NCBI GenBank assembly: GCA_026388015.1
Contig: JAPLKO010000053.1
Span: 7,352-71,351 of the forward strand
Length of the DNA stretch: 64,000 bases
DNA from: Candidatus Firestoneibacteriota bacterium
GTDB lineage: Bacteria; Oederibacteriota; D2-FULL-39-29
Direction: 5' to 3'
Notes under the pieces: generated by a model
Told to the model about the DNA's origin: nothing
The model's database searches: none
What the model saw: the letters and a program-made list of their open reading frames with translations, nothing else
Program-made: the position numbers and the translations under genes
Part shown: positions 7,178-47,378 of the stretch, piece after piece
How positions within the stretch are numbered: position 1 is the stretch's first letter
Layout of the letters: every line of letters begins with the position of its first letter

Positions 7178-9739
7178 ATGGCAGGTAAAAAAAAGAAATT
7201 GTTTTTGATAGACGGTAACTCCTACCTCTATCGAAGCTACTATGCCATAAAAAATTTAAAGACTTCAAAAGGCGCGCCGACCAATGCAGTATTCGGGTTT
7301 GCGCGTCTTTTATTTAGAATACTTAAGGTGTACAAACCGGAGTATCTCGCCTTTACCTTTGACACTAAAGGACCTACTTTCCGCCACAAGGCCTATAAAG
7401 ATTATAAAATTCACAGAGAGCCTCCGCCCGAAGATCTGATAGCCCAGATGCCTGTAACAAAAGATCTTATAAAAGCTTTTAATATGCCCTCTTTTGAACT
7501 TCAGGGATATGAAGCCGACGATATAATAACCTATCTGGCAAGAAAAGGGGAGCAGGCGGGGTTAGAGGTGCTGATTTTAACCGGGGATAAAGATTTACTT
7601 CAGCTGGTTAATGAAAACATTAAAATTATGAGCGCAAACAAAGAGGATTATATTTATGATGCTGCAAAAGTAAAAGAAAAATACGGAATAGAACCGTTAC
7701 AGATGATAGATTTTCTGGCTCTGCTCGGGGATGCGAGTGATAACATACCCGGAGTGGACGGTATAGGGGAAAAGACGGCGTCCGAGCTTCTTAAAGAGTT
7801 TAAAGGTCTGAATGATATATATTCCAACATAGAAAAAGTAAAAAGCGACAAATTAAAGGAAAAATTGCTTAAAGGTAAGGAGTCGGCCTACTTTAGCAGA
7901 CAGCTGGCTACTCTCATTGAACCTCCTCTGGAGATAACCATAGAAGAGCTCGTTTCTAAAATTCCGGATGCCGCAGCTGTACTTGCAAAGCTGGGCGAAC
8001 TGGAGTTTGGCTCTATGCGGGAGGAGTTTAAGAAACTCGGTTTTTCACCGGTAGAAAGCGGGGAAGTAAACCTTTTTTCCGAAGAGAAGAAAGCTGAGTC
8101 AAATATTTTAGAAGTAACAGGTAAAGAGCAGACCGCTGAGGTGTACAAAGAGATTAAAAAATCCGGTAAAGCGGCCGTAAGTTTGCAGGACGGAAAGATT
8201 CTTTTTTCTTATGCCGCGGGTAAGGGGCACAGATTAGAGGTAAACAGAGGTTTAACGGATACTCTCCTTGCAGATAAGGAGCTCTCTCTTTCTTTCTTTG
8301 ATTACAAAGAGTTTCTTAAAGTTTATGACGGTGCAGTTACCAAGGGTGAGGTTTTTGACTGCCGGCTTGCGGCTTACCTGTTAAATCCGGACCGGGGCAG
8401 CTATATGCAGGGGGAGATAATATTCAGTTATCTGGCAAAAAATCCGGCGGAAAAAGAAGAAGTCTGTTTTCTGCTCGAACTTAAAGATGCGCTAAAAAAA
8501 GAGTTAAAGGAGCAGAAGCTTCTGGAGTTATTTGAAAAAATAGAGATGCCGTTAGTGCCGGTGCTTGCTTCTATGGAAAAGCACGGGATCAAACTGGACC
8601 TTCAACATCTAAAGAAACTCTCCGTAGAGCTCGGGAAAACACTGGAGGGGCTGATTAAAAACATCTACGGTCTGGCCGGGGAGGAGTTTAATATTAACTC
8701 TTCGCAGCAGCTCGGAAAAATATTATTTGAAAAACTTAAACTGCCGGTGGTAAAAAAGACGAAGACCGGTAACTCCACCGATGTAGAAGTTTTAGAAGAG
8801 CTTGCCGCAAAATCTCCTCTTCCCGCCTTTTTGCTGGAGTACAGACAGTTAACGAAACTTAAAAATACTTATATTGATTCTCTGCCGTTACTTGCCGACA
8901 AAGAGGATAAAGTTCATACGACGTTTGAGCAGACCGGCGCGGCAACCGGGAGACTCTCCAGTCTTAATCCTAATATTCAAAATATTCCCGTAAGAACGGA
9001 AGTCGGTAAAGAGATAAGAAGGGCTTTTACGGCTTCCGAAAAAGGCTGGAAGCTCATATCTGCGGACTACTCCCAGATAGAGCTGCGTATTCTCGCGCAT
9101 TTTTCAGGAGATAAAAATCTGATTGATGCTTTTGAAAAAGACGAAGATGTGCACAGCCGGACGGCGGCAGAGATATTTAAAATAAAAAAAGACGCCGTAA
9201 CCGGTGACGAAAGGCGCATTGCCAAAACAGTTAATTTTGGTATAATCTATGGCATCTCTGCATTCGGCCTGGCAAAACAACTGAAGATAAGCCGTACGGA
9301 AGCGCAAAAATATATAGACAGTTATCTCGAAAACTACCCGGGTGTTGATAGGTTTATGCAGGAGGCCAAAGAAAAGGCGAAGAAACAGGGCTTTATCGAG
9401 ACCCTCCTCGGAAGAAAGAGGTATATTCCGGATATTGAAAGTAAAAATAAGAATACCCGGGAGTTCGCCGAAAGAGTTGCTGTTAATGCGCCGATTCAGG
9501 GTTCGGCATCGGATATTATTAAAGTTGCAATGGTTAAACTTTACGGTATAATGCAAAAAGAGGTTAAGAAAGGGCGTCTTCTTCTGCAGGTGCATGATGA
9601 GCTTATTCTGGAGTGCCCGGAAAAAGATGTTGAGAGCCTTAAAAAGCTTGTAAAAGAAACGATGGAAGAAGTAATAAAACTGAAAGTACCGCTTAAAGTG
9701 GATGTTAACTCGGGGGATAACTGGCTTGAGTGCAAATAA
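7178..9739 (+). CDS. polA: DNA polymerase I
   Basis: 5'-3' exonuclease N-terminus. Polymerase motif B is RRIAKTVNFGIIYG and motif C is QVHDELILE. Length is 853 aa. Confidence 0.95.
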   Translation: MAGKKKKLFLIDGNSYLYRSYYAIKNLKTSKGAPTNAVFGFARLLFRILKVYKPEYLAFTFDTKGPTFRHKAYKDYKIHREPPPEDLIAQMPVTKDLIKAFNMPSFELQGYEADDIITYLARKGEQAGLEVLILTGDKDLLQLVNENIKIMSANKEDYIYDAAKVKEKYGIEPLQMIDFLALLGDASDNIPGVDGIGEKTASELLKEFKGLNDIYSNIEKVKSDKLKEKLLKGKESAYFSRQLATLIEPPLEITIEELVSKIPDAAAVLAKLGELEFGSMREEFKKLGFSPVESGEVNLFSEEKKAESNILEVTGKEQTAEVYKEIKKSGKAAVSLQDGKILFSYAAGKGHRLEVNRGLTDTLLADKELSLSFFDYKEFLKVYDGAVTKGEVFDCRLAAYLLNPDRGSYMQGEIIFSYLAKNPAEKEEVCFLLELKDALKKELKEQKLLELFEKIEMPLVPVLASMEKHGIKLDLQHLKKLSVELGKTLEGLIKNIYGLAGEEFNINSSQQLGKILFEKLKLPVVKKTKTGNSTDVEVLEELAAKSPLPAFLLEYRQLTKLKNTYIDSLPLLADKEDKVHTTFEQTGAATGRLSSLNPNIQNIPVRTEVGKEIRRAFTASEKGWKLISADYSQIELRILAHFSGDKNLIDAFEKDEDVHSRTAAEIFKIKKDAVTGDERRIAKTVNFGIIYGISAFGLAKQLKISRTEAQKYIDSYLENYPGVDRFMQEAKEKAKKQGFIETLLGRKRYIPDIESKNKNTREFAERVAVNAPIQGSASDIIKVAMVKLYGIMQKEVKKGRLLLQVHDELILECPEKDVESLKKLVKETMEEVIKLKVPLKVDVNSGDNWLECK

Positions 9740-38440: not shown

Positions 38441-39760
38441 ATGAGCGCAAAATTTAAAATTAATATCGCTTTTGTTTTCCTCTTTTGTTTTCTTTTCGTT
38501 TTTACCTCCCTGCACCTGTATGCTCAAGAAACAGAAAAAGTAGTTTACAAGTTTAAGTCTACAAACAGGATGGAGCTTGATAAGCTTTTGGCAAAATATA
38601 AAGACAAACCTTGGGAAATTAAGGCTATTTTTGAAAATGATGACGGGCATATCGGTACTTTCGGAGTTGGAGATAGGATAAGAGAAAAACCGGGCGACGG
38701 CTTTTTGCGTTTTAGTATTGGGCCGGTCGGTCTTGACGGTGAGGGATATTTTGTTCAGACAAAAAAATTATCCAATTTCTTGAAAGTTGTTGCTGTCATG
38801 TGTCTTATGGATAAGGGCAAAGTTGTAGAGAAAGTACCACTTACTATCGACTATTGTTGAACGGGCCTTTCCCCGTACGCCGTGCGCGTACCCTCAAACT
38901 TCCCTCCGGGGCGGCACCGGATATCAGTAACCTATAAAGGCAAAGAGGTAAAGGTGCCTGAACGTCATTTTACTTTTGATGTAGAAAATCCTAACTATGG
39001 AAAATCACAGGTAGATTCTGATACTCAATCGCTTCAGAGAAAGCATGCCGGAGCTGTTGTTGAAGTATTTCAGCAGGGGCAGGATTGTACTTCTTTGCCT
39101 GTTAAAAAGTATGAAGGGTGTAAGGATGTTTGGATTAACTCTTTAGGTCTTAACCACGGAAAGAGTATTTATCTTAAAGTCGGGAAGTATAGTGTCGACA
39201 TGAAATCTTTAATCAAATATGATCTCTCCAAACTTCCTAAAAATGCAAAAATAGAGGGCGCATATCTAAAAATGTATTCATTCAATATTTCCTACGCAAA
39301 GGATATGCCGGTTTACCGGATGCTTTCGTCCTGGGGGGCCGGGACCGGGAGCGACTCTATTGTGTTGGATAATCTTGTTTATGAATATGAAAAAGTGAAA
39401 TTTGGAACTGTCCCGAAGGAAGGTGAGTGCAGCTGGACGTACTCTGAAAAACCGGAAAAATGGGAAGGGGTCGGAGTTTCTAAAACCGGAGAAGACCGTG
39501 AAGGTGCGGCGTTGGATAGGGCGCGTGAAATTCCGGAAAAAACAAAAATAGCAGTAAAGGATGAGGCGAGGGGCTGGGTATCTTGGGATGTTACAAAAGC
39601 TGCAAAAGAATGGGTTTCCGATCCGGAGAATAATTTTGGTGTACTTTTAGAAAAAAAACTTGAGGGAAAAGATGTATATACTCAATTCTTATCTTCTGAT
39701 CATTATGATAAACCGTTCCGTCCGAAACTTATAATATTCTATAAGACCGATAAAAAATAG
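38441..39760 (+). CDS. Secreted protein with an N-terminal domain and a DNRLRE-type C-terminal domain. It is encoded by two collinear ORFs joined by a single in-frame TGA at 38858-38860, making it a candidate selenoprotein (...DYC-U-TGLSPY...) or else a nonsense-disrupted gene.
   Basis: ORFs 38441..38860 and 38882..39760 share a frame and only the TGA separates them. The signal peptide is on the first ORF only. No RBS precedes the second ORF. A SECIS-like hairpin lies at 38875-38891. The second half shows DNRLRE-domain-like blocks (IKYDLSKLPKNAKIEGAYLKMYSF; WVSDPENNFGVLLE). Confidence 0.45.
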
Positions 39761-40124
39761 ATAAAGAACTACCTGGGATAATTCCTGTAGAACTGAAAGC
39801 CGAACCGTCCCCGCCTGTGTTTCCCTTCAATGAACTCTCTAATGTTTTAACTATAGATGCCTTTTTCTCTTGTTCTGGCAGGTATTTACTGAAACACCGC
39901 TCTGTTTTACTATTTATTCAGCTATTTTCCCTCAGCCTGCCATAATATATCAGCCTTATTATCATACAAATTTGATTTGTTGTTTTTGTCGCTCTTGGTA
40001 TTGTATAATTGTTATAATATTTTACCGGGTTTTGGGACAGGTCTAAGTGATTGTGGACACCGCTAATACGTCAGATAATTCAATAGAAACCAATAAATAT
40101 TTCCTGAAAATTGGAGTTGTTTGA

Positions 40125-41702
40125 ATGAAGATAAAAGTCAATCTATCAAAGCGCAAACGGATAATGCAACGGTCAAAAAAGCTCGGGCATTGTATTTGTG
40201 ACCCGAAAAAGCATTGTCCTTGTGATGTCTTTATGAAAAAAGGGCTTTGTCCCTGCGCGGGTGAACGTCCGGAGCCGACCGATATTTCCAATATTCAGCT
40301 TACCAAACTTGTACATAATGCAGGCTGTGCTTCAAAAATTCCTGCTTCAGACCTTGAAGCTCTTCTTGCAAGGTTACCTGTAGTTTCTGATTCGGCTATT
40401 ATTTCAGGGCTGGCGGCAGGTGATGATGCGGCTGTCTATAAAATAAACGACACAACAAATCTTGTTCAGACCGTAGATGTATTTACCCCCTGTGTTGATG
40501 ATCCGTATGCTTTCGGAAAAATCTGCGCCTGTAACTGCCTTTCGGATATATACGCAATGGGTGGAGTGCCCCGTACGGCTTTAAGTATTCTGGCTTTTCC
40601 GGTTGAAACTCAGGATAAAGAGATAATGTACTTGATGCTAAAAGGCGCTATGGAAGTGCTGCAGGAGGCCGGATGCAGTTTGCTCGGCGGCCACAGTATA
40701 AAAGATGAGGAGATAAAACTTGGTTTTGCAATTACAGGTACTATTGATACGGGAAAATCGGTATCTCTTGAAACAGCAGTTGATGGCGACGTGTTGGTGC
40801 TGACCAAACCTATAGGAACAGGCGTGTTAACATTTGCAAATCAGATAGAGCGCAAAAATGAAAGAGGAGTTGCAGCGGCGGAAATTTCAATGATGACTCT
40901 AAATAAAGCGGCTGCGGAGGCTATGATTGCAACCGGAGTTTCGGCCTGTACGGATATAACCGGGTTTGGTTTGTACGGGCACCTGGCTCGCATGATGCGC
41001 CATTCAAAAACTTCGGCAAGAATATTTACAAACACTCTGCCTGTTTTTGAAGGGGCACTTGAACTTTTAAAGGAAGGGGTGATTCCCGGGGCGAACGAAA
41101 GAAATGCCGAGTTCGTCGGGGAAGATCTTCTTGCCGGAAAAACTGTCAGTGAAGAGTATAAAAATATCGGATTTTCTTCCGAAACATCAGGCGGGTTGCT
41201 TATCTCAGTGCCTGAAAATAAATATAAAACCCTTGCAGCTGAACTAAAAGAGCGTAATGTTACTTTTGCTGTTATCGGAGAGGTCTTTTCCGGCAAGCCG
41301 GGAGTTATAAAACTTGATAATATCAAAGGCAAAGGAGAAGAGATGAAACATCAAAAAAAAGAGGAAAAAGGTTGTTGCTGTTCGGAGTCTGATTGCGCAG
41401 AGGCCGGAATGAGCGCCGGAGGAACGAGTACGGTTCCTGCCTCCATAAAAGCATTTGGCGAGCTTCTTGCTTCTGTAACTGCAACTGGGAAAATTGATAA
41501 ACGCGTAAAAGAGCTGATTGTTTTTTCTCTTGTGGTTCTACAGCGCTGTGAGTCCTGTGTTGATTTGCATTATACAAAAGCCCTCGGTATGGGTATCACA
41601 AAAGAAGAGCTTGACGAGGCTGCCTGGTGCGCTATTTTGATCGGCGGCGCTCCTGTAAAAATGTGCTATGCGACTTTTTTGAGCAAACGTAACAGCAAAT
41701 AG
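40125..41702 (+). CDS. selD: Selenide, water dikinase (selenophosphate synthetase, Cys type) with an N-terminal Cys-rich extension and a C-terminal AhpD/CMD-like CxxCxxxH domain
   Basis: SelD core: LVHNAGCASKIP aligns with the E. coli HGAGCGCKISP region, on an AIR-synthase-like fold. N-terminal extension HCICDPKKHCPCDVFMKKGLCPCAG. C-terminal about 125 aa carry CESCVDLH, the AhpD-type CxxCxxxH. Confidence 0.8.
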   Translation: MKIKVNLSKRKRIMQRSKKLGHCICDPKKHCPCDVFMKKGLCPCAGERPEPTDISNIQLTKLVHNAGCASKIPASDLEALLARLPVVSDSAIISGLAAGDDAAVYKINDTTNLVQTVDVFTPCVDDPYAFGKICACNCLSDIYAMGGVPRTALSILAFPVETQDKEIMYLMLKGAMEVLQEAGCSLLGGHSIKDEEIKLGFAITGTIDTGKSVSLETAVDGDVLVLTKPIGTGVLTFANQIERKNERGVAAAEISMMTLNKAAAEAMIATGVSACTDITGFGLYGHLARMMRHSKTSARIFTNTLPVFEGALELLKEGVIPGANERNAEFVGEDLLAGKTVSEEYKNIGFSSETSGGLLISVPENKYKTLAAELKERNVTFAVIGEVFSGKPGVIKLDNIKGKGEEMKHQKKEEKGCCCSESDCAEAGMSAGGTSTVPASIKAFGELLASVTATGKIDKRVKELIVFSLVVLQRCESCVDLHYTKALGMGITKEELDEAAWCAILIGGAPVKMCYATFLSKRNSK

Positions 41703-41714
41703 GAGAAGAGTTTA

Positions 41715-42947
41715 ATGCCGGAATGTAAAAAGAATAAATGTTGCGCCGACATAAAAAAAGATGAGACTGCCGATTGTCCTATAAATTATTTCCAGAACCA
41801 GGTGGAGAATTCACTGGATTATGCAGAGTCTATGAAAGCTGAAGGAGCCAAAATTGTCGGTATTATGTGTGAATACACTCCGCGTGAGTTAATCATGGCG
41901 GCAGGGGGTGTGCCGGTGTGTCTTTGCGGAGGTTCAGTCGAGATGGTTGAGCCGGCGGAAAAGGTTTTGCCTGCGAATCTATGCCCTTTAATAAAATCCA
42001 CGTTTGGCTTTAGTCTTTTGAAAGAAAACCCTTTTCTGGAAATGTCAGATCTTCTTGTTGCCGAAATCACTTGTGACGGGAAGAAAAAGATGTATGAACT
42101 TTTAGCAAAGATGCATCCTTTGCACGTGCTTGAACTTCCGCAAAAACCGGAGGATAAAGACGCTTTCAAGCACTGGGTGGCGGAACTTAACAAATTGAAA
42201 ACCGCACTGGAACAAAGATTTTCTGTTAAAATCACTGCTAAAAAATTAAAAGAAGCTGTCCGGGTTATGAACAGGGAAAGAAAATTAAAACGAGAACTGG
42301 CAGCTCTTATGAAATCCGATAATCCGCCGCTTACGGGCCGTGAACTTCTTGATATGAAAAGTTTGATCTCCGGAATGCCCGAGGATTTTAAGCAGTATGA
42401 GAAAGCCTTGAAAATGCTTCCGGGTAGAAAGATTAAACCTGCCGCGGGCAAAAGAGTAAGAGTGCTTTTGACCGGAGTCCCTATGCCTCATGGAGCGGAG
42501 AGGGTTATGGATATCCTTGAAGAAAACGGCGGGCTGGTGGTTTGCCAGGAAAACTGTACCGGGTTAAAACCGATTTTAGAGGATGTCAAAGAGAATACGG
42601 GGGATCTCCTTACAGCAATTGCCAAAAAATATTTTAATATACCCTGTTCTGTTATGACGCCGAACAAGAAAAGACTTGTTCAAATCAAACAGCTTGCGGC
42701 AGAATATAAAGCTGATTGCGTTATTGAAGTTATCTGGCGCACCTGTATAACTTATGATGTGGAGTCTGTGCTGGTCAAAAAAATGACGGAAGAGGAGTTA
42801 AACCTCCCATATTTAAAAATTGAAACTGATTACTCGCCTTCTGACACTGCCCGTATAGCGCTAAGAGTGCAGGCATTATATGAGACTGTCAAAGGCAGAA
42901 AGAGTTCCGGAAGATTTGAAAAGAAAAAAACAAGAAAGGGAAGATAA
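41715..42947 (+). CDS. HgdB/BcrC-family protein (2-hydroxyacyl-CoA dehydratase-like / double-cubane-cluster protein type)
   Basis: Cys-rich N-terminus. About 410 aa. It is translationally coupled to a BadF/BadG/BcrA/BcrD-type activase downstream. The family call is by architecture and memory. Confidence 0.55.
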   Translation: MPECKKNKCCADIKKDETADCPINYFQNQVENSLDYAESMKAEGAKIVGIMCEYTPRELIMAAGGVPVCLCGGSVEMVEPAEKVLPANLCPLIKSTFGFSLLKENPFLEMSDLLVAEITCDGKKKMYELLAKMHPLHVLELPQKPEDKDAFKHWVAELNKLKTALEQRFSVKITAKKLKEAVRVMNRERKLKRELAALMKSDNPPLTGRELLDMKSLISGMPEDFKQYEKALKMLPGRKIKPAAGKRVRVLLTGVPMPHGAERVMDILEENGGLVVCQENCTGLKPILEDVKENTGDLLTAIAKKYFNIPCSVMTPNKKRLVQIKQLAAEYKADCVIEVIWRTCITYDVESVLVKKMTEEELNLPYLKIETDYSPSDTARIALRVQALYETVKGRKSSGRFEKKKTRKGR

Positions 42948-43723
42948 TGTATTTTGCCGGAGTGGATGCGGGATCCCGCACTATAAAAGTGGTAATTATT
43001 AAAGGGTCTGATTTAACCGTTTCCGGTTTCGGTATTGTTGATCAAGGGGTAAGACAGGCAGTTAAAGCAAAGGAGCTCCTTGATAAAGTAATCCGTAACT
43101 CAAAAATAAAAATTAAAGATATCGGAGGAATTGTTGCCACGGGTTACGGAAGGAACGCTTTAAGCTGGGCGGACAGTAAAGTAACCGAGATCACCTGTCA
43201 GGCGTATGGAGTAAAGCAGGAAATACCCAATGCTCGTATGATAATTGACATCGGTGGACAAGATAGTAAAATAATTCATCTGGACTCAAATGGTATCGTC
43301 AACGATTTTGTTATGAATGACAGGTGCGCAGCCGGAACAGGCCGTTTTCTTGAAGTTGTTGCGGATAGGCTTGAAATAAAACTTAAGGATATCGGCAGAT
43401 ATTCGGATAAAGCCGCATCTCCTTCGAAAATAAGCAGTATGTGTGTAGTTTTTGCTGAAGCCGAAATAGTGGGCCTTCTTGCTGCTGAAGAAGCCCCGGA
43501 AAATATTTTGGCCGGGGTTCAAAACTCTATTGCAAAACGTATATGCATTATGGCCGGTTCAGGTTTTAAAGGGCCGGTTGTTTTTACCGGAGGCGTTGCG
43601 CTTCTTCCCGGCATGAAAAAAGCGCTTCAGGACTGTTTGGAGCATTCTATAAACGTTGTAAAGACTCCGCAATTTACCGGAGCTTTTGGCGCGGCCTTGC
43701 TGGCGGCAAAAGATAAATATTAA
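42947..43723 (+). CDS. BadF/BadG/BcrA/BcrD-family ATPase (HgdC-like activase / CoA-substrate-specific enzyme activase)
   Basis: N-terminal YFAGVDAGSRTIKVVII actin-fold phosphate-1 motif. Length is 258 aa. Its start overlaps the upstream stop (TAATG). Confidence 0.7.
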   Translation: MYFAGVDAGSRTIKVVIIKGSDLTVSGFGIVDQGVRQAVKAKELLDKVIRNSKIKIKDIGGIVATGYGRNALSWADSKVTEITCQAYGVKQEIPNARMIIDIGGQDSKIIHLDSNGIVNDFVMNDRCAAGTGRFLEVVADRLEIKLKDIGRYSDKAASPSKISSMCVVFAEAEIVGLLAAEEAPENILAGVQNSIAKRICIMAGSGFKGPVVFTGGVALLPGMKKALQDCLEHSINVVKTPQFTGAFGAALLAAKDKY

Positions 43724-43831
43724 GCAGTTAATAAAAAATAGTATATAATATATCTGTTATCATAGAAAAAGCCTTGTTGTAATTTAAGCAATTGTGAAAT
43801 ATTTCTAAATAGATTATTAGGGAGGTGTTTA

Positions 43832-45316
43832 GTGCCTGGTGACGCTCGCAGTCTTCAAAACTGTCGCGGGACTGATAAGGTTCCGGGTGGGTTCAATTCC
43901 CATACACCTCCGCCAATTTCAGAGTTACTGAAAAAGATCCCTTCCGTTTCGCTGCTTTTGGAAACATTGGAACTCCAAAAGTTGTCAAAAAGATTCGGCG
44001 GCGAGATACTTAAATCGGAGCTTCGCCTGCTTCTTGAAGAGTTAAGGAATAAGATTAAAAACGGTAAAAGCTGCGGTATTCCGGAAATAAATAAAATAAC
44101 GGAACAGCTCGAGACCCGCCTGACACGTTTTACCTCTCCCGAAGGAAGAAGAGCTATTAATGCTACAGGAATACTACTCCATACGGGACTTGGTCGTTCA
44201 CCTTTATGCAGTGAAGCCCTCGAAGCGCTTGCAGGAATGGGGACGTACTCTCTTTTACAAGCTGACCTTGCGTCGGGAAAACGCTCGTTGCGCGAGGAAA
44301 AAATAGAAAGGATGCTTATCCGGCTGACCGGATGTGAAGCCGCAACCGTAGTAAATAATAATGCGGCGGCTACCATGCTCATTTTAAATACCTTAGCGGC
44401 CGGAAAAAAAGTTATTTTAAGCCGGGGCCAGCTTATTGAAATAGGCGGAGAGTTCCGCATGCCGGATGTGATGGCGAGAAGTTCCGTCATTATGCAGGAG
44501 ATCGGGACCACTAACCGGACGCACCTTAAGGATTACGAGAAGGCTATTGATGAAAATACGGGCGCTCTTTTACACGTGCATACTTCGAATTTCCGTGTAC
44601 GGGGCTTTTCCGGAACTCCGGACATTAAAGAACTTTGCAGTTTAGCAAAAAAATATAATCTTCCGGTAATTGACGATTTAGGGAGCGGAGCTCTGGTACC
44701 GCTTTCAAGATACGGCATTACAGATGAGCCTCTGGTTTCTGATTCGATAAAGGCCGGGAGTTCCGTAATATGTTTTAGCGGAGATAAGCTTATCAACGGA
44801 CCCCAGGCCGGAATAATTTGCGGGAAAAAAGAGTTTATTCAAAACATCAGAAAAAATCCGTTTGCCCGGATGTTTCGTGTTTGTAAGCTTACGCTTGCGG
44901 CGCTCGAGGCAACACTTGTGCATTTTGTAAACGATACACAGGGTGAAGCGCTTCCATTTTATAAGATGTTGACGATCTCTGCTCAAAATCTCGAGAAAAA
45001 AGCAAAACTGCTTGCTGATTTGGCCGGAAAGATTAAAGGGGTTAAAGCAAAAATAATAGATGATGTGTCTTATGTCGGCAGCGGTTCACTCCCGGATGAA
45101 GGAATACCGACGAAGGTTGTGTGTGTCAGCTTTGATAACGCAAACAAAAGTAAAAAGAGTATAGAAGAAATTGCAATATGCCTGAGGCTCGGAGTTCCGT
45201 CGGTTTTTTGCAGAGTAAAAGATGATGCGCTGTATTTTGATATGCGGACGTTATTTGACAAAGAGGAGAGGGAAATAGCAGAAGCATTAAGCAGTGTTAT
45301 GAAGGGTTGCTCCTGA
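43832..45316 (+). CDS. selA: L-seryl-tRNA(Sec) selenium transferase, with a GTG start
   Basis: PLP-lysine region CFSGDKLINGPQAGIICGKKEF. N-terminal INATGILLHTGLGRS. Confidence 0.85.
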   Translation: MPGDARSLQNCRGTDKVPGGFNSHTPPPISELLKKIPSVSLLLETLELQKLSKRFGGEILKSELRLLLEELRNKIKNGKSCGIPEINKITEQLETRLTRFTSPEGRRAINATGILLHTGLGRSPLCSEALEALAGMGTYSLLQADLASGKRSLREEKIERMLIRLTGCEAATVVNNNAAATMLILNTLAAGKKVILSRGQLIEIGGEFRMPDVMARSSVIMQEIGTTNRTHLKDYEKAIDENTGALLHVHTSNFRVRGFSGTPDIKELCSLAKKYNLPVIDDLGSGALVPLSRYGITDEPLVSDSIKAGSSVICFSGDKLINGPQAGIICGKKEFIQNIRKNPFARMFRVCKLTLAALEATLVHFVNDTQGEALPFYKMLTISAQNLEKKAKLLADLAGKIKGVKAKIIDDVSYVGSGSLPDEGIPTKVVCVSFDNANKSKKSIEEIAICLRLGVPSVFCRVKDDALYFDMRTLFDKEEREIAEALSSVMKGCS

Positions 45317-47247
45317 TGCCGGAGTATAAAATCAAAACCCCGGAAATTATACCGGTTATGATAGGTACAGCCGGTCATGTTGATCACGGTAAAACAGCTC
45401 TTGTTCGACTGCTTACGGGTTGCGAGACGGATATCCTGCCGGAAGAAAAAAAAAGAGGAATGAGCATAGACTTGGGGTTCGCGCCGTTTTTGCTGGACGA
45501 TAACAGGATGGCGGGGATTATCGATGTGCCCGGTCATGAAGATTTTATCAGGAACATGATTGCTGGCGCCTCATCCATAGATGTTCTTATTCTTATTATT
45601 GCGGCGGATGACGGGGTGATGCCCCAGACGATAGAACACCTGAAGATAATGAGCTTGCTTCAAACTCCTGAGGTTATGGCCGTAATTACCAAGATAGATA
45701 TAGTGGGTAAAGAGCGGCAGCAGGAAGTAAGTAACCAGGTTCATGAATTACTCAAAGAGTACGGTTTTTCCGGAGTTCCTGTTATTTTGGAATCGAATAT
45801 AACGGGGGAGGGGCTCGGAGAGGTCAGAGAAGAGGTAAATAAGCTGGTGTGCCGTATTCAGCGTCCAAAGGAGACAAAACCTTTCAGGATGAATATCGAA
45901 AGAGTTTTTTCGGTGAAAGGTTACGGTACGGTGGTTACGGGTATTCCTCTTTCAGGAAAATGCGTTATAGATGAGGAACTGGAGCTCTTGCCGGGTCCTC
46001 ATAGCGTAATCTGCCGCTCTATCCAGAAGTACAGTGTGGATTCTTCCGATGCGACTGCTCATGCCTGCTCAGCTATTAATCTGAGAGCGGCAAAACTACC
46101 TGAGATTGAACGCGGGATGACGCTCGCTTCGACCGGAGTCTATAGGAAAACTGTTTCAGCGGTTTTAAGTATAAAAAATGTTCATGAGTCGTTGCCGCTT
46201 AAACGGCGACAGGAACTGCGTTTTTGTTGCGGGACTTCCAACAGAATAGTTTTGAGTGTGTTGCTTGGAAAAAATGAAGTTTTGTCTCCGGGAGAGAATG
46301 GTTTTATACAGATAAAACTTTCCGAACCTGTCGTTTTAGCGGCCGGCGACAGGTTTATTTTAAGAACTCTCTCTCCTTCTGCGACAGTAGCAGGAGGCGT
46401 GGTTCTTTCTGCAAATCCTCCGGAAGGGAAGAAAAAAGCAAAAGTTGACACCGTTAAACTGGAAAAGGCGCGCATAGCTGCAGAGCAAGGCGACTATTTT
46501 TTTAGTGAAATTATAGCAGGTGGTTTTTCCGTGATAAACAAAAATGAGCTTGCTTTTCTTGTTCAGGAAGACGAAGAAAGCATAAAAATTGCAATTGAGG
46601 AGAAGATTAAAGCCGGCGTACTTATACCTGCCGGTAAAACACAGTGGATTATCAAAGACCGTATAGTTGAACTTGAAGAAAAATTAAGATTCTTGTTAAC
46701 GGCATATCACAAAGAAAATAAGATTTCTCGCGGCATGCCTTTTGCCGGGGTGTGCTCTTTTTTAGGGCTGGATAAAGAAAGCTATCCGGATTTGAGTAAA
46801 ATATTTGCCGGAAGCGGAGTTCTTTCGGTGCAAAGTGACTGTGTTTCTTTGAAAAGTTTTGCCGTTGAAATGACCGCAAAACAAAAGAATATCAGGGAAA
46901 AGATTATAGGGATGCTTTCGAAAGCCGAGAACTCCGCTGTAGCGCTCAATACTATTGAAGCTGAACTTAAAGTTGATATGCCTGAACTCAGGATTGTTAT
47001 GCGTTTTTTAACAGAAGAAGGGGTGATATATACTCTGGATAAATATGTAATTTTTTCTAAGGTAGTTATTAACGCTCTGGATAAGTTAAAGGAGCATTTT
47101 AAAAACGAAAGTACGGTTGAGTTGAGCCATTTTAGGGAGCTGACCGGACTTTCCAGGAATGTAGCCGTACCTGTTCTCGAATATTTTGATTCAAAAGGTA
47201 TAACGTGTCGAGAGGGAAAAGCTCGCAGGCTTGCAAATAAGAGTTAA
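45307..47247 (+). CDS. selB: Selenocysteine-specific translation elongation factor
   Basis: GTPase G1 motif GTAGHVDHGKT and G3 motif DVPGHE. Long C-terminal winged-helix extension; 646 aa. It overlaps the selA 3' end by 10 nt. Confidence 0.88.
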   Translation: MLLMPEYKIKTPEIIPVMIGTAGHVDHGKTALVRLLTGCETDILPEEKKRGMSIDLGFAPFLLDDNRMAGIIDVPGHEDFIRNMIAGASSIDVLILIIAADDGVMPQTIEHLKIMSLLQTPEVMAVITKIDIVGKERQQEVSNQVHELLKEYGFSGVPVILESNITGEGLGEVREEVNKLVCRIQRPKETKPFRMNIERVFSVKGYGTVVTGIPLSGKCVIDEELELLPGPHSVICRSIQKYSVDSSDATAHACSAINLRAAKLPEIERGMTLASTGVYRKTVSAVLSIKNVHESLPLKRRQELRFCCGTSNRIVLSVLLGKNEVLSPGENGFIQIKLSEPVVLAAGDRFILRTLSPSATVAGGVVLSANPPEGKKKAKVDTVKLEKARIAAEQGDYFFSEIIAGGFSVINKNELAFLVQEDEESIKIAIEEKIKAGVLIPAGKTQWIIKDRIVELEEKLRFLLTAYHKENKISRGMPFAGVCSFLGLDKESYPDLSKIFAGSGVLSVQSDCVSLKSFAVEMTAKQKNIREKIIGMLSKAENSAVALNTIEAELKVDMPELRIVMRFLTEEGVIYTLDKYVIFSKVVINALDKLKEHFKNESTVELSHFRELTGLSRNVAVPVLEYFDSKGITCREGKARRLANKS

Positions 47248-47348: not shown

Positions 47349-47378
47349 TTGACAGTAAATACGTTCTTATGCTATATT
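47349..47378 (+). promoter_or_regulatory. Sigma70-like promoter: TTGACA, 18-nt spacer, TATATT
   Basis: Read directly, upstream of the ilv leader. Confidence 0.45.

Follow-up and report, generated by a model that had tools for sequence, protein, structure and literature searches.

The 64,000-nucleotide stretch analysed here (the window; positions 7,352 to 71,351 of the forward strand of contig JAPLKO010000053.1, assembly GCA_026388015.1, Candidatus Firestoneibacteriota bacterium) contains a single selenium gene cluster with the order selD–DCCP–activase–selC–selA–selB, in which selD codes for a fusion protein (Table 1). The middle of the cluster is occupied by two genes coding for a double-cubane-cluster protein (DCCP) and its ATP-dependent reductase or activase, and close relatives of this DCCP are encoded near sel genes in a variety of bacterial phyla and gene orders. 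All five protein-coding genes are transcribed rightwards, and the cluster is flanked by housekeeping genes coding for ThiF, a radical S-adenosylmethionine (SAM) ThiH-like protein, UvrD, IlvD, IlvB, PlsX, FabH and FabD.

Table 1. Features of the selenium gene cluster, its surroundings and related loci. L numbers are identifiers of loci in other genomes; MT, methyltransferase.
Feature	Position	Strand	Details
Candidate Cys-Sec ('CU') selenoprotein gene	38441-39760	+	in-frame TGA 38858-38860
Possible -10 element upstream of selD	40002-40009	+	TGTATAAT; read by eye, weak
Possible -10 element upstream of selD	40010-40018	+	TGTTATAAT; read by eye, weak
selD, three-part fusion	40125-41702	+	525 aa; TIGR00476, PF00586, PF02769, PF02627, TIGR00778
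SelD six-Cys N-terminal motif	40152-40268	+	residues 10-48
SelD core		+	residues 59-397; AGCASK (Cys68/Lys71)
SelD linker with near-invariant CC	41376-41381	+	residues 418-419
SelD AhpD/CMD domain	41445-41660	+	residues 441-512; C475-xx-C478-xxx-H482
DCCP	41715-42947	+	410 aa; NF040772, PF06050; starts MPECKKNKCCADIKKDETADCP
ATP-dependent reductase/activase (DCCP-R, 'archerase')	42947-43723	+	258 aa; TIGR00241, PF01869
Spacer between activase and selC	43724-43820	+	97 nt, AT-rich
selC, tRNA-Sec gene	43821-43915	+	anticodon TCA; ARAGORN; Rfam RF01852
selA (selenocysteine synthase)	43916-45316	+	putative start; TIGR00474
selB (Sec-specific elongation factor)	45316-47247	+	likely ATG 45316; TIGR00475
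NapH/MauN-like genes	L001 12653-13513; L168 13398-14285; L171 10256-11143; L172 11630-12556; L167 4464-5309 and 18169-19032		
Larger operon MT-DCCP-HGD-D-HGD-D-activase	L167 11614-16920; L170 11737-16986; L011 8932-14347		also at ~30 other loci

DCCPs, which make up 'cluster IV' of the FldB/C family and are defined as homodimers with an [8Fe-9S] cluster, were found in 2018 as a nitrogenase-like, ATP-driven reductase system. The window protein matches the curated equivalog model NF040772 ('double-cubane-cluster-containing anaerobic reductase') with 419.3 bits against a cut-off of 350, over model positions 3–371 of 372, and PF06050 with E = 5.7e-103. Its best sequence matches in the PDB are the DCCPs 7YYL and 6ENO (214 bits each), followed by BzdN (86 bits) and HadC (78 bits). 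An AlphaFold2 model (pLDDT 83.7, pTM 0.83, with residues 1–17 below 50) has DCCP chains as its top five Foldseek hits, and superimposes on 6ENO with TM-scores of 0.84/0.82 and a root-mean-square deviation of 2.0 Å over 387 columns. An earlier reading of the window from its letters and open reading frames (ORFs; hereafter the sequence-only reading) had called this gene an HgdB/BcrC-family protein of the DCCP type and its neighbor a BadF/BadG/BcrA/BcrD-type ATPase; both assignments agree with the profiles, and the first also with the 6ENO-like model.

Seven cysteines of the window DCCP (52, 71, 90, 120, 281, 311 and 344) align with cysteines of the solved DCCP and are invariant in an alignment (A1) of 20 sequences from many phyla; the seven conserved cysteines of DCCPs comprise six cluster ligands and one adjacent cysteine. 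Their spacing here is C-x18-C-x18-C-x29-C-x160-C-x29-C-x32-C, which agrees with the published pattern CX19CX18-19CX29CX166-170CX32-34CX32C (PMC7317905) at three gaps and is shorter by 1–6 residues at the three others; the type DCCP of Carboxydothermus hydrogenoformans, by our count, is likewise slightly off the published pattern. Residue 39 aligns with residue 63 of the solved chain, with 38 residues preceding it, and the length of the protein suggests that it is of the shorter, class II-like type; class I DCCPs have an N-terminal extension by which the substrate channel is closed. The model shows no ordered structure for the first 21 residues (nt 41715–41777), a tail rich in cysteines. In DCCPs of the same clade this tail frequently starts M-x-x-C-C-G/N and ends D-C-P-(I/L/V)-(T/S)-(Y/W); among 116 clade members, 75 have at least two tail cysteines, 52 have a CC pair, and 29 have none.

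Homology might have placed the DCCP with a characterised dehydratase acting on a coenzyme A (CoA) ester, a placement that the sequence-only reading had allowed for, and it does not: the scores against the subunit models for HadC, BzdN and BcrC are 100.1, 94.1 and 53.6 bits, with cut-offs of 700, 453.8 and 421. No second HGD-D gene is present, as tblastn of the extra paralogues of relatives across the 64-kb window matches the DCCP alone, and no neighbors typical of CoA-ester pathways (CoA transferase, acyl-CoA dehydrogenase, electron-transfer flavoprotein and similar) lie nearby. A 2-hydroxyacyl-CoA dehydratase or benzoyl-CoA reductase is ruled out because there is a single HGD-D gene, the scores are far below the cut-offs, and CoA-pathway context is lacking. 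BzdNO/PQ, HadBC/HadI and HgdAB/HgdC do belong to the same superfamily and share the ATP-dependent 'archerase' type of donor, and BzdN also has an [8Fe-9S] cluster (PMC11971306), but these enzymes are heterodimers of two HGD-D paralogues that act on CoA esters.

The activase matches TIGR00241 ('acyl-CoA dehydratase activase') with 246.8 bits (cut-off 125.4; residues 4–252) and PF01869 with 179.4 bits (cut-off 31.5), so that an ASKHA-type ATPase gene adjoins the DCCP. Its PDB matches are MbdQ (187 bits), HadI (179), HgdC (173) and the DCCP-R chain 7YYL_E (151), and it thus scores as well against the first three as against DCCP-R. Cys127 (in NDRCAAGTGRF) and Cys166 (in SSMCVVFAEAE) align to conserved cysteines of MbdQ and, as judged from this alignment, belong to the motifs by which solved archerases bind their bridging [4Fe-4S] cluster; we take their numbering to be equal to that of HgdC. 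In DCCP-R the bridging [4Fe-4S] cluster is bound through C115 and C152 (PMC9351452).

The genes are packed in an operon-like manner. The selD stop codon is followed after 12 nt, containing the ribosome-binding site GGAGAAGAG, by the ATG of DCCP, and the DCCP/activase junction reads GATAATGTAT, in which the last A of the TAA stop is also the first base of the ATG (TAATG); at the selA/selB junction a TGATG overlap couples the selA stop to the likely selB start. The two ORFs of the pair, their sizes and coordinates, the TAATG overlap and the operon-like packing had all been read correctly from the sequence, and the equivalog models confirm the flanking genes, with 336.6 bits for selD upstream (TIGR00476) and 508.5 and 342.7 bits for selA and selB downstream (TIGR00474 and TIGR00475). 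The description of the pair as tightly packed between selD and selA-selB holds within selD–DCCP–activase and within selC–selA–selB, but fails across the AT-rich spacer between these blocks; it also overlooked selC ahead of selA, and treated as a plain selD what is a three-part fusion.

A consensus scan finds no promoter- or terminator-like site at the selD/DCCP/activase junctions or in the 97-nt spacer, so that no consensus site of either kind isolates the pair; the scan totals are near shuffled expectation (promoter-like 16 vs 14.6, terminator-like 14 vs 9.2), and such scans are weak evidence either way. A promoter-like site lies after selB and before ilvD (47349–47378). The non-coding gap before selD is 364 nt long (39761–40124) and holds both possible -10 elements, which the scan does not list since it demands a -35 hexamer.

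Homologues of the window DCCP with 63–74% identity are found in Omnitrophica, Elusimicrobiota, Aminicenantes, Verrucomicrobiota, Kiritimatiellae, Myxococcota, Planctomycetes and others, including one at 71% in a 'Deltaproteobacteria' metagenome-assembled genome (MAG). We compared 80 DCCP loci from species-representative genomes, in which SelD, SelA, SelB and the activase were located by tblastn; a locus was taken as linked where selD, selA or selB lies within 10 kb, and as fully flanked where at least 8 kb is available on both sides. Among DCCPs at least 50% identical to that of the window, sel genes are linked at 28 of 59 loci and at 18 of the 27 that are fully flanked, compared with 1 of 21 and 1 of 13, respectively, for DCCPs below 50% identity (Fisher p = 5e-4 for 18/27 vs 1/13). 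A generous chance expectation is ~2% per locus, against the 67% observed. In a neighbor-joining tree every linked locus except L064 falls within one large clade, and linkage is scattered through this clade. The adjacency to sel genes on which a selenium-linked function had been suggested is thus kept in related genomes.

The linkage survives in at least eight gene orders, and linked loci are spread over at least seven phylum-level groups: Planctomycetota, Verrucomicrobiota/Kiritimatiellia, Myxococcota, Armatimonadota, Hydrogenedentota, Omnitrophota and 'Deltaproteobacteria'. With ACT for the activase and hgd for a further HGD-D paralogue, the orders include selD>DCCP>ACT>selC>selA>selB as in the window, selD>MT>DCCP>hgd>hgd>ACT and MT>DCCP>hgd>hgd>ACT>selD>selC; DCCP>ACT>selD>selC, DCCP>selD and DCCP>ACT>selA>selB; and selA>selB>DCCP, selA>selD>selB…DCCP and the divergent <selB<selA…DCCP>. 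In many of them selD directly abuts the DCCP or activase gene, and selC is present at 15 of 30 such loci, often directly 3' of selD. That the linkage has outlasted these rearrangements points to selection on it rather than to descent from one ancestral operon.

Viewed from the SelD side, a metagenome scan places an activase or DCCP gene near 5 of 15 SelDs with the N-terminal Cys motif and near 1 of 65 plain SelDs (p = 7e-4), with several of the 15 motif-bearing loci being on short contigs. When the eight fused SelDs with the longest surrounding DNA are picked on that basis alone, a DCCP set lies beside selD in two (L167, Omnitrophota, and L170, Myxococcota), and the other six are selA-selB-selD operons. 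An obligate coupling of the fused SelD with DCCP is ruled out by these long loci; with 18 of 27 clade loci linked but a DCCP near only two of eight fused SelDs, the linkage is strong when DCCP is taken as the starting point and facultative when SelD is.

At the locus outside the main clade (L064 7297–11865, from a Desulfotomaculaceae MAG) the gene of a plain SelD, which lacks the N-terminal motif, is followed by a tandem pair of DCCP genes and an activase gene; this is apparently an independent case of selD–DCCP adjacency.

Many clade loci contain additional genes. An ArsM/DVU_1556-like SAM methyltransferase gene is located just upstream of DCCP at 26 of 59 loci, and at ~30 loci two further HGD-D paralogues of ~330 and ~460 aa, which match NF040772 weakly (58–62 bits) and may form a heterodimeric partner, are inserted between DCCP and activase. 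The methyltransferase is far under every curated family cut-off (43 bits vs 155). Further extras are a NapH/MauN-like membrane ferredoxin and a DUF3034 protein. None of these four (methyltransferase, extra HGD-D, NapH-like or DUF3034) is encoded within the 64-kb window, which, like its closest relative L001, is a minimal version of the cluster.

The SelD of the window has a three-part organization. The protein, which is 71% identical to that of a Syntrophus sp. MAG, matches TIGR00476 with 336.6 bits (cut-off 125), and its C-terminal domain matches PF02627 (CMD) with 50.6 bits (cut-off 23) and TIGR00778 with 40.3 bits (cut-off 27.8). In an alignment of 14 such fusions (A2) the N-terminal motif R..M.RS...GHCIC.P...CPC........C.CAGE is invariant, as are AGCASK with C68 and K71, which we take to correspond to Cys17 and Lys20 of Escherichia coli SelD, and the C-terminal C475, C478 and H482; the CC pair is nearly invariant in an otherwise variable linker. 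CxxCxxxH is the active-site motif of Mycobacterium tuberculosis AhpD. The N-terminal motif has no Pfam match at E <= 10, and its profile has none in the PDB at E <= 10; a likeness to the CPC/CHC motifs of ferredoxin-thioredoxin reductase was considered and has no support from Pfam or the PDB at this threshold.

The PF02627 fusion is present in 118 of the 120 best SelD homologues, all of them labelled just 'SelD'. A survey of SelD fusions (Mariotti et al. 2015, PMC4561486) reports N-terminal fusions only, of NADH-dehydrogenase-like, NifS-like and methyltransferase types, and the six-Cys/SelD/AhpD fusion is not in its list; the fused domain in the window is C-terminal, with a small N-terminal Cys motif in addition. 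Two reviews, of 2022 and 2026, are silent on this fusion and on DCCPs.

A NapH/MauN-like membrane ferredoxin (PF12801 Fer4_5) repeatedly adjoins fused selD, with or without DCCP; at L167 small proteins of the Nitro_FeMo-Co (PF02579) and PDZ types accompany it. This recurrence suggests that, in general, the fused SelD is supplied with electrons. A different arrangement is seen in L056 (13850–15768), where selB-selC-selA-DCCP-activase-NapH is followed downstream by two tandem SelD-core-like ORFs of 328 and 305 aa. These have 33–36% identity to the window core and may be a duplicated or diverged SelD pair.

The selC gene scores 75.1 bits against RF01852 (gathering score 47, E = 1.4e-13). SelA exceeds the cut-off of its model (508.5 vs 267.9 bits), with model position 1 corresponding to ORF residue 33; the sole canonical start, GTG 43832, preceded by GGGAGGTG, falls inside selC, and between the 3' end of the tRNA and the conserved N-terminal domain of SelA the only codons that might serve as starts are ATT 43916 and CTG 43928. 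The same selC/selA layout is present in L001 (13856–13965). SelB also lies above its cut-off (342.7 vs 242.25 bits); the ORF listing starts it at TTG 45307, and the likely start is the ATG at 45316.

Upstream of selD, and separated from it by the 364-nt gap, ORFs 38441–38860 and 38882–39760 share a frame and are split by TGA 38858 alone. Read-through would give …PLTIDY-C-U-TGLSPYAVRVPS…; the product carries a signal peptide and, C-terminally, a CBM96/DNRLRE domain. The N-terminal half has four homologues only among 1.84 billion representative proteins; the three closest all terminate in Cys-stop. Homologues at 91%, 56% and 40% identity do so with an ORF following in frame, and in the 56%-identical homologue the next gene begins 21 nt past the stop codon in the same frame. 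In L173 (~40% identical) an in-frame TGA is followed by conserved residues, C-U-GGMMPYAVSVPSFMPPGRH, and a hairpin like a selenocysteine insertion sequence, GUACGC-(CGUGN)-GCGUAC at +17 to +34, is identical at 19 of 20 nt. The case for a selenoprotein rests on conservation, because the fold energy of the hairpin after TGA 38858 is no better than that of shuffled sequences (z = -0.3 to -1.2); no NCBIfam selenoprotein model matches the candidate. We regard 38441–39760 as a strong candidate for a Cys-Sec selenoprotein gene, and the contigs of its homologues show no linkage to sel or DCCP genes.

The pair resembles the DCCP and DCCP-R of C. hydrogenoformans (CHY_0487/0488; 6ENO, 7YYL, 7YZM) in its two-gene architecture, fold, seven cysteines and the two cluster cysteines of the ATPase. 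It differs in that the DCCPs are only 31% identical, and the window protein is shorter N-terminally and has the disordered Cys-rich tail; the window pair, for its part, is embedded in a sel operon. We know of no sel-operon context for the uncharacterised E. coli pair YjiM/YjiL. This pair, likened here by description only, is of the DCCP type and of similar length, without a long N-terminal extension (PMC7317905), and YjiM is a member of NF040772 according to Haft and Gwadz (bioRxiv 10.1101/2022.07.06.499078; J Bacteriol 2023). DCCPs reduce acetylene, hydrazine and azide, solely with DCCP-R and ATP, and neither dithionite nor Ti(III) citrate is able to reduce the DCCP cluster (PMC7317905, PMC9351452, PMC11971306); their biological function was called unknown in 2020, 2022 and 2025 (same papers). 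In TudS, another member of the superfamily, a chalcogen atom is handled on the [4Fe-5S] cluster (PMC11971306).

A selenium connection of the DCCP family is not new, and the statement in the sequence-only reading that neither selenium reduction for SelD nor a selenoprotein partnership had been described for this family was too strong. Haft and Gwadz built NF040772, found 955 of its 970 members in SelD-containing genomes, and proposed either the processing of selenium compounds or a selenium-bridged cofactor or cluster; they also tied DCCPs to an organometallic 'SAO' locus. A STRING table in Lin et al. 2015 (PMC5322559) puts HgdB-like and activase genes in the Slackia sel cluster, without discussion, and some of the methyltransferase clusters drawn in PMC10418091 include DCCP and DCCP-R as well as selABD, DCCP being described there as 'provisionally linked' to selenium. 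We found no experimental literature tying DCCPs to selenide, selenite or selenophosphate. The family and the inferred selenium connection are the same here as in Haft and Gwadz, and their two hypotheses cover the main readings considered below. Their evidence, however, is genome-level co-occurrence and SAO adjacency, whereas ours is physical linkage, mainly in one clade and with a particular fused SelD; we found no statement of selD adjacency in the text of their preprint, and saw no SAO genes in the annotated part of the window. The window proteins are ordinary members of known families; new here are a physical linkage that is specific to one clade and withstands rearrangement, the coupling of translation to selD, and the SelD fusion that occurs alongside.

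We tentatively propose that the pair is an ATP-driven reductase that turns a bound selenium species into selenide for SelD by way of cysteine relays, a reading that we consider quite possible though short of probable. A low-potential cellular donor would reduce the [4Fe-4S] cluster of the reductase, ATP hydrolysis would push electrons onto the [8Fe-9S] cluster of DCCP, and this cluster would reduce a pre-selenide species such as thiol-bound Se(0), a perselenide, a selenotrisulfide or possibly carbon-bound selenium. The Se(0)/HSe- couple, at ~-0.7 V (we located no published value), would fit ATP-energised electrons. Selenide would then travel through cysteine relays, the candidates being, on DCCP, the Cys-rich tail and, on SelD, the six-Cys motif, the CC linker and the CxxCxxxH domain of AhpD type, to the active-site Cys68, where SelD would make the selenophosphate that SelA uses on tRNA-Sec. 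We infer the substrate, the cysteine relay and the direction of flow, with DCCP upstream of SelD. The motifs of SelD are consistent with a protein specialised on its input side, with the six-Cys motif next to the catalytic loop, the CC linker, and the CxxCxxxH of the AhpD domain.

Systems in which a dedicated protein hands reactive selenium to SelD include the fusions of a NifS-like Sec lyase with SelD (PMC4561486) and PRDX6-SEPHS2 in mammals, with a thiol-peroxidase-type carrier (PMC11327102). By analogy, the AhpD-type domain on the window SelD would play a comparable role to these dedicated carriers; the chemistry differs, being that of a pyridoxal-phosphate lyase or of thiols in those systems, compared with ATP-driven iron-sulfur reduction here.

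Several observations weigh against the proposed delivery of selenide by DCCP. The linkage is not obligate: sel genes within 10 kb are lacking at nine of the 27 fully flanked clade loci, a DCCP within 10 kb of selD is lacking at six of the eight long fused-selD loci, and there is none at the further loci L093 and L094 either. DCCP is not generally required to feed SelD, since SelD is present in 38% of representative genomes and DCCP in 4.7% (Haft and Gwadz). An ATP-driven step is also not obviously needed, because thioredoxin-like thiol/NADPH systems already reduce selenite for selenoprotein synthesis in other bacteria (PMC8538045). The tail cysteines that would serve in the relay vary, and are missing from the 29 clade members noted above.

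The same adjacency fits a DCCP that is a consumer of the product of SelD, in which the cluster or a maturation intermediate would hold selenium, for example at the bridging position between the cubanes, with SelD supplying selenophosphate; this would add a selenium-utilisation trait beside selenocysteine, selenouridine and the selenium-molybdenum cofactor, and we think it unlikely. Haft and Gwadz raise a selenium cluster as a formal possibility, given that nearly all DCCPs are in SelD genomes and that most SelD genomes have no DCCP, and the adjacency to selD itself in many gene orders agrees with it, as do the order DCCP-activase-selD-selC in L029, where neither selA nor selB lies within 10 kb, and, in the Omnitrophota cluster L167, the small 'Nitro_FeMo-Co' proteins, cluster carriers that resemble NifX. 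The minimal cluster of the window, however, has no spare selenium-transferase gene comparable to SelA, YbbB or YqeB/C, the linkage extends to selA, selB and selC, which are needless for a cofactor role, and the domains fused to SelD look like input-side thiol relays; moreover, C. hydrogenoformans DCCP made in E. coli is modelled with a bridging sulfide and is active (PMC7317905). Occupation of the bridging position of the double cubane by selenium, either permanently, as an [8Fe-8S-Se] cofactor made from selenophosphate, or transiently, as an intermediate releasing selenide for SelD, seems to us similarly improbable.

A function unrelated to selenium, with DCCP serving strict anaerobes as a general reductase of small molecules or CoA esters and having sel neighbors through shared regulation, hitch-hiking or chance, is likewise doubtful. 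The sole demonstrated DCCP activities are on acetylene, hydrazine and azide (PMC7317905, PMC9351452), sel neighbors are lacking at the nine clade loci already mentioned and at 12 of 13 fully flanked distant loci (20 of 21 overall), and enrichment of both traits in anaerobes could inflate their co-occurrence. Such a function accords poorly with a linkage seen at 67% of loci where ~2% is expected by chance and kept through so many gene orders and phylum-level groups, with the translational coupling to selD in the window, and, for a CoA-ester substrate, with the missing pathway context and the dehydratase and benzoyl-CoA reductase scores far below cut-off.

The pair could also take part in metalloid methylation or demethylation, or in organo-selenium salvage, with DCCP cleaving or reducing methylated or carbon-bound selenium (or arsenic) and the sel genes adjoining it since the salvaged selenium ends in selenoproteins. 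The methyltransferase before DCCP at 26 of 59 clade loci and the two extra HGD-D paralogues after DCCP at ~30 would be accounted for in this way, and DCCP genes occur in corrinoid methyltransferase clusters proposed for methyl-selenide recycling (PMC10418091) as well as in connection with the SAO locus (Haft and Gwadz). We regard this as distinctly unlikely for the window, in that the window and L001 have kept selD-DCCP-activase yet have no methyltransferase, extra HGD-D or corrinoid genes, and the methyltransferase itself reaches only 43 of the 155 bits of its cut-off.

Very unlikely, in our view, is that the pair keeps a partner protein reduced, be it the fused SelD, at its CxxC disulfide or its six-Cys site, or a selenoprotein in oxidised form like the upstream Cys-Sec candidate: three redox-type Cys motifs on SelD, a NapH-like ferredoxin as another electron supplier beside fused selD with or without DCCP, and the candidate gene 364 nt upstream of selD would suit such a role, but ordinary thioredoxin-type systems reduce CxxC disulfides, so that a reductase working below the potential of dithionite seems unnecessary, and the candidate has a signal peptide, is probably exported, and has no sel or DCCP linkage in its homologues.

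If DCCP does not provide selenide to SelD as proposed, the locus amounts to a standard sel operon with yet another uncharacterised DCCP pair at its side. The generation of selenide and its delivery to SelD in anaerobes are poorly understood, and the widespread and hitherto unremarked SelD fusion offers a second handle on them. The sel-linked clade narrows the search for DCCP function to selenium chemistry, and the window, as a clean minimal example, makes the physiological role of DCCPs directly testable. Selenium on the double cubane, if found, would make DCCPs enzymes of chalcogen handling, and the operon would then disclose the long-missing physiological role of the family.

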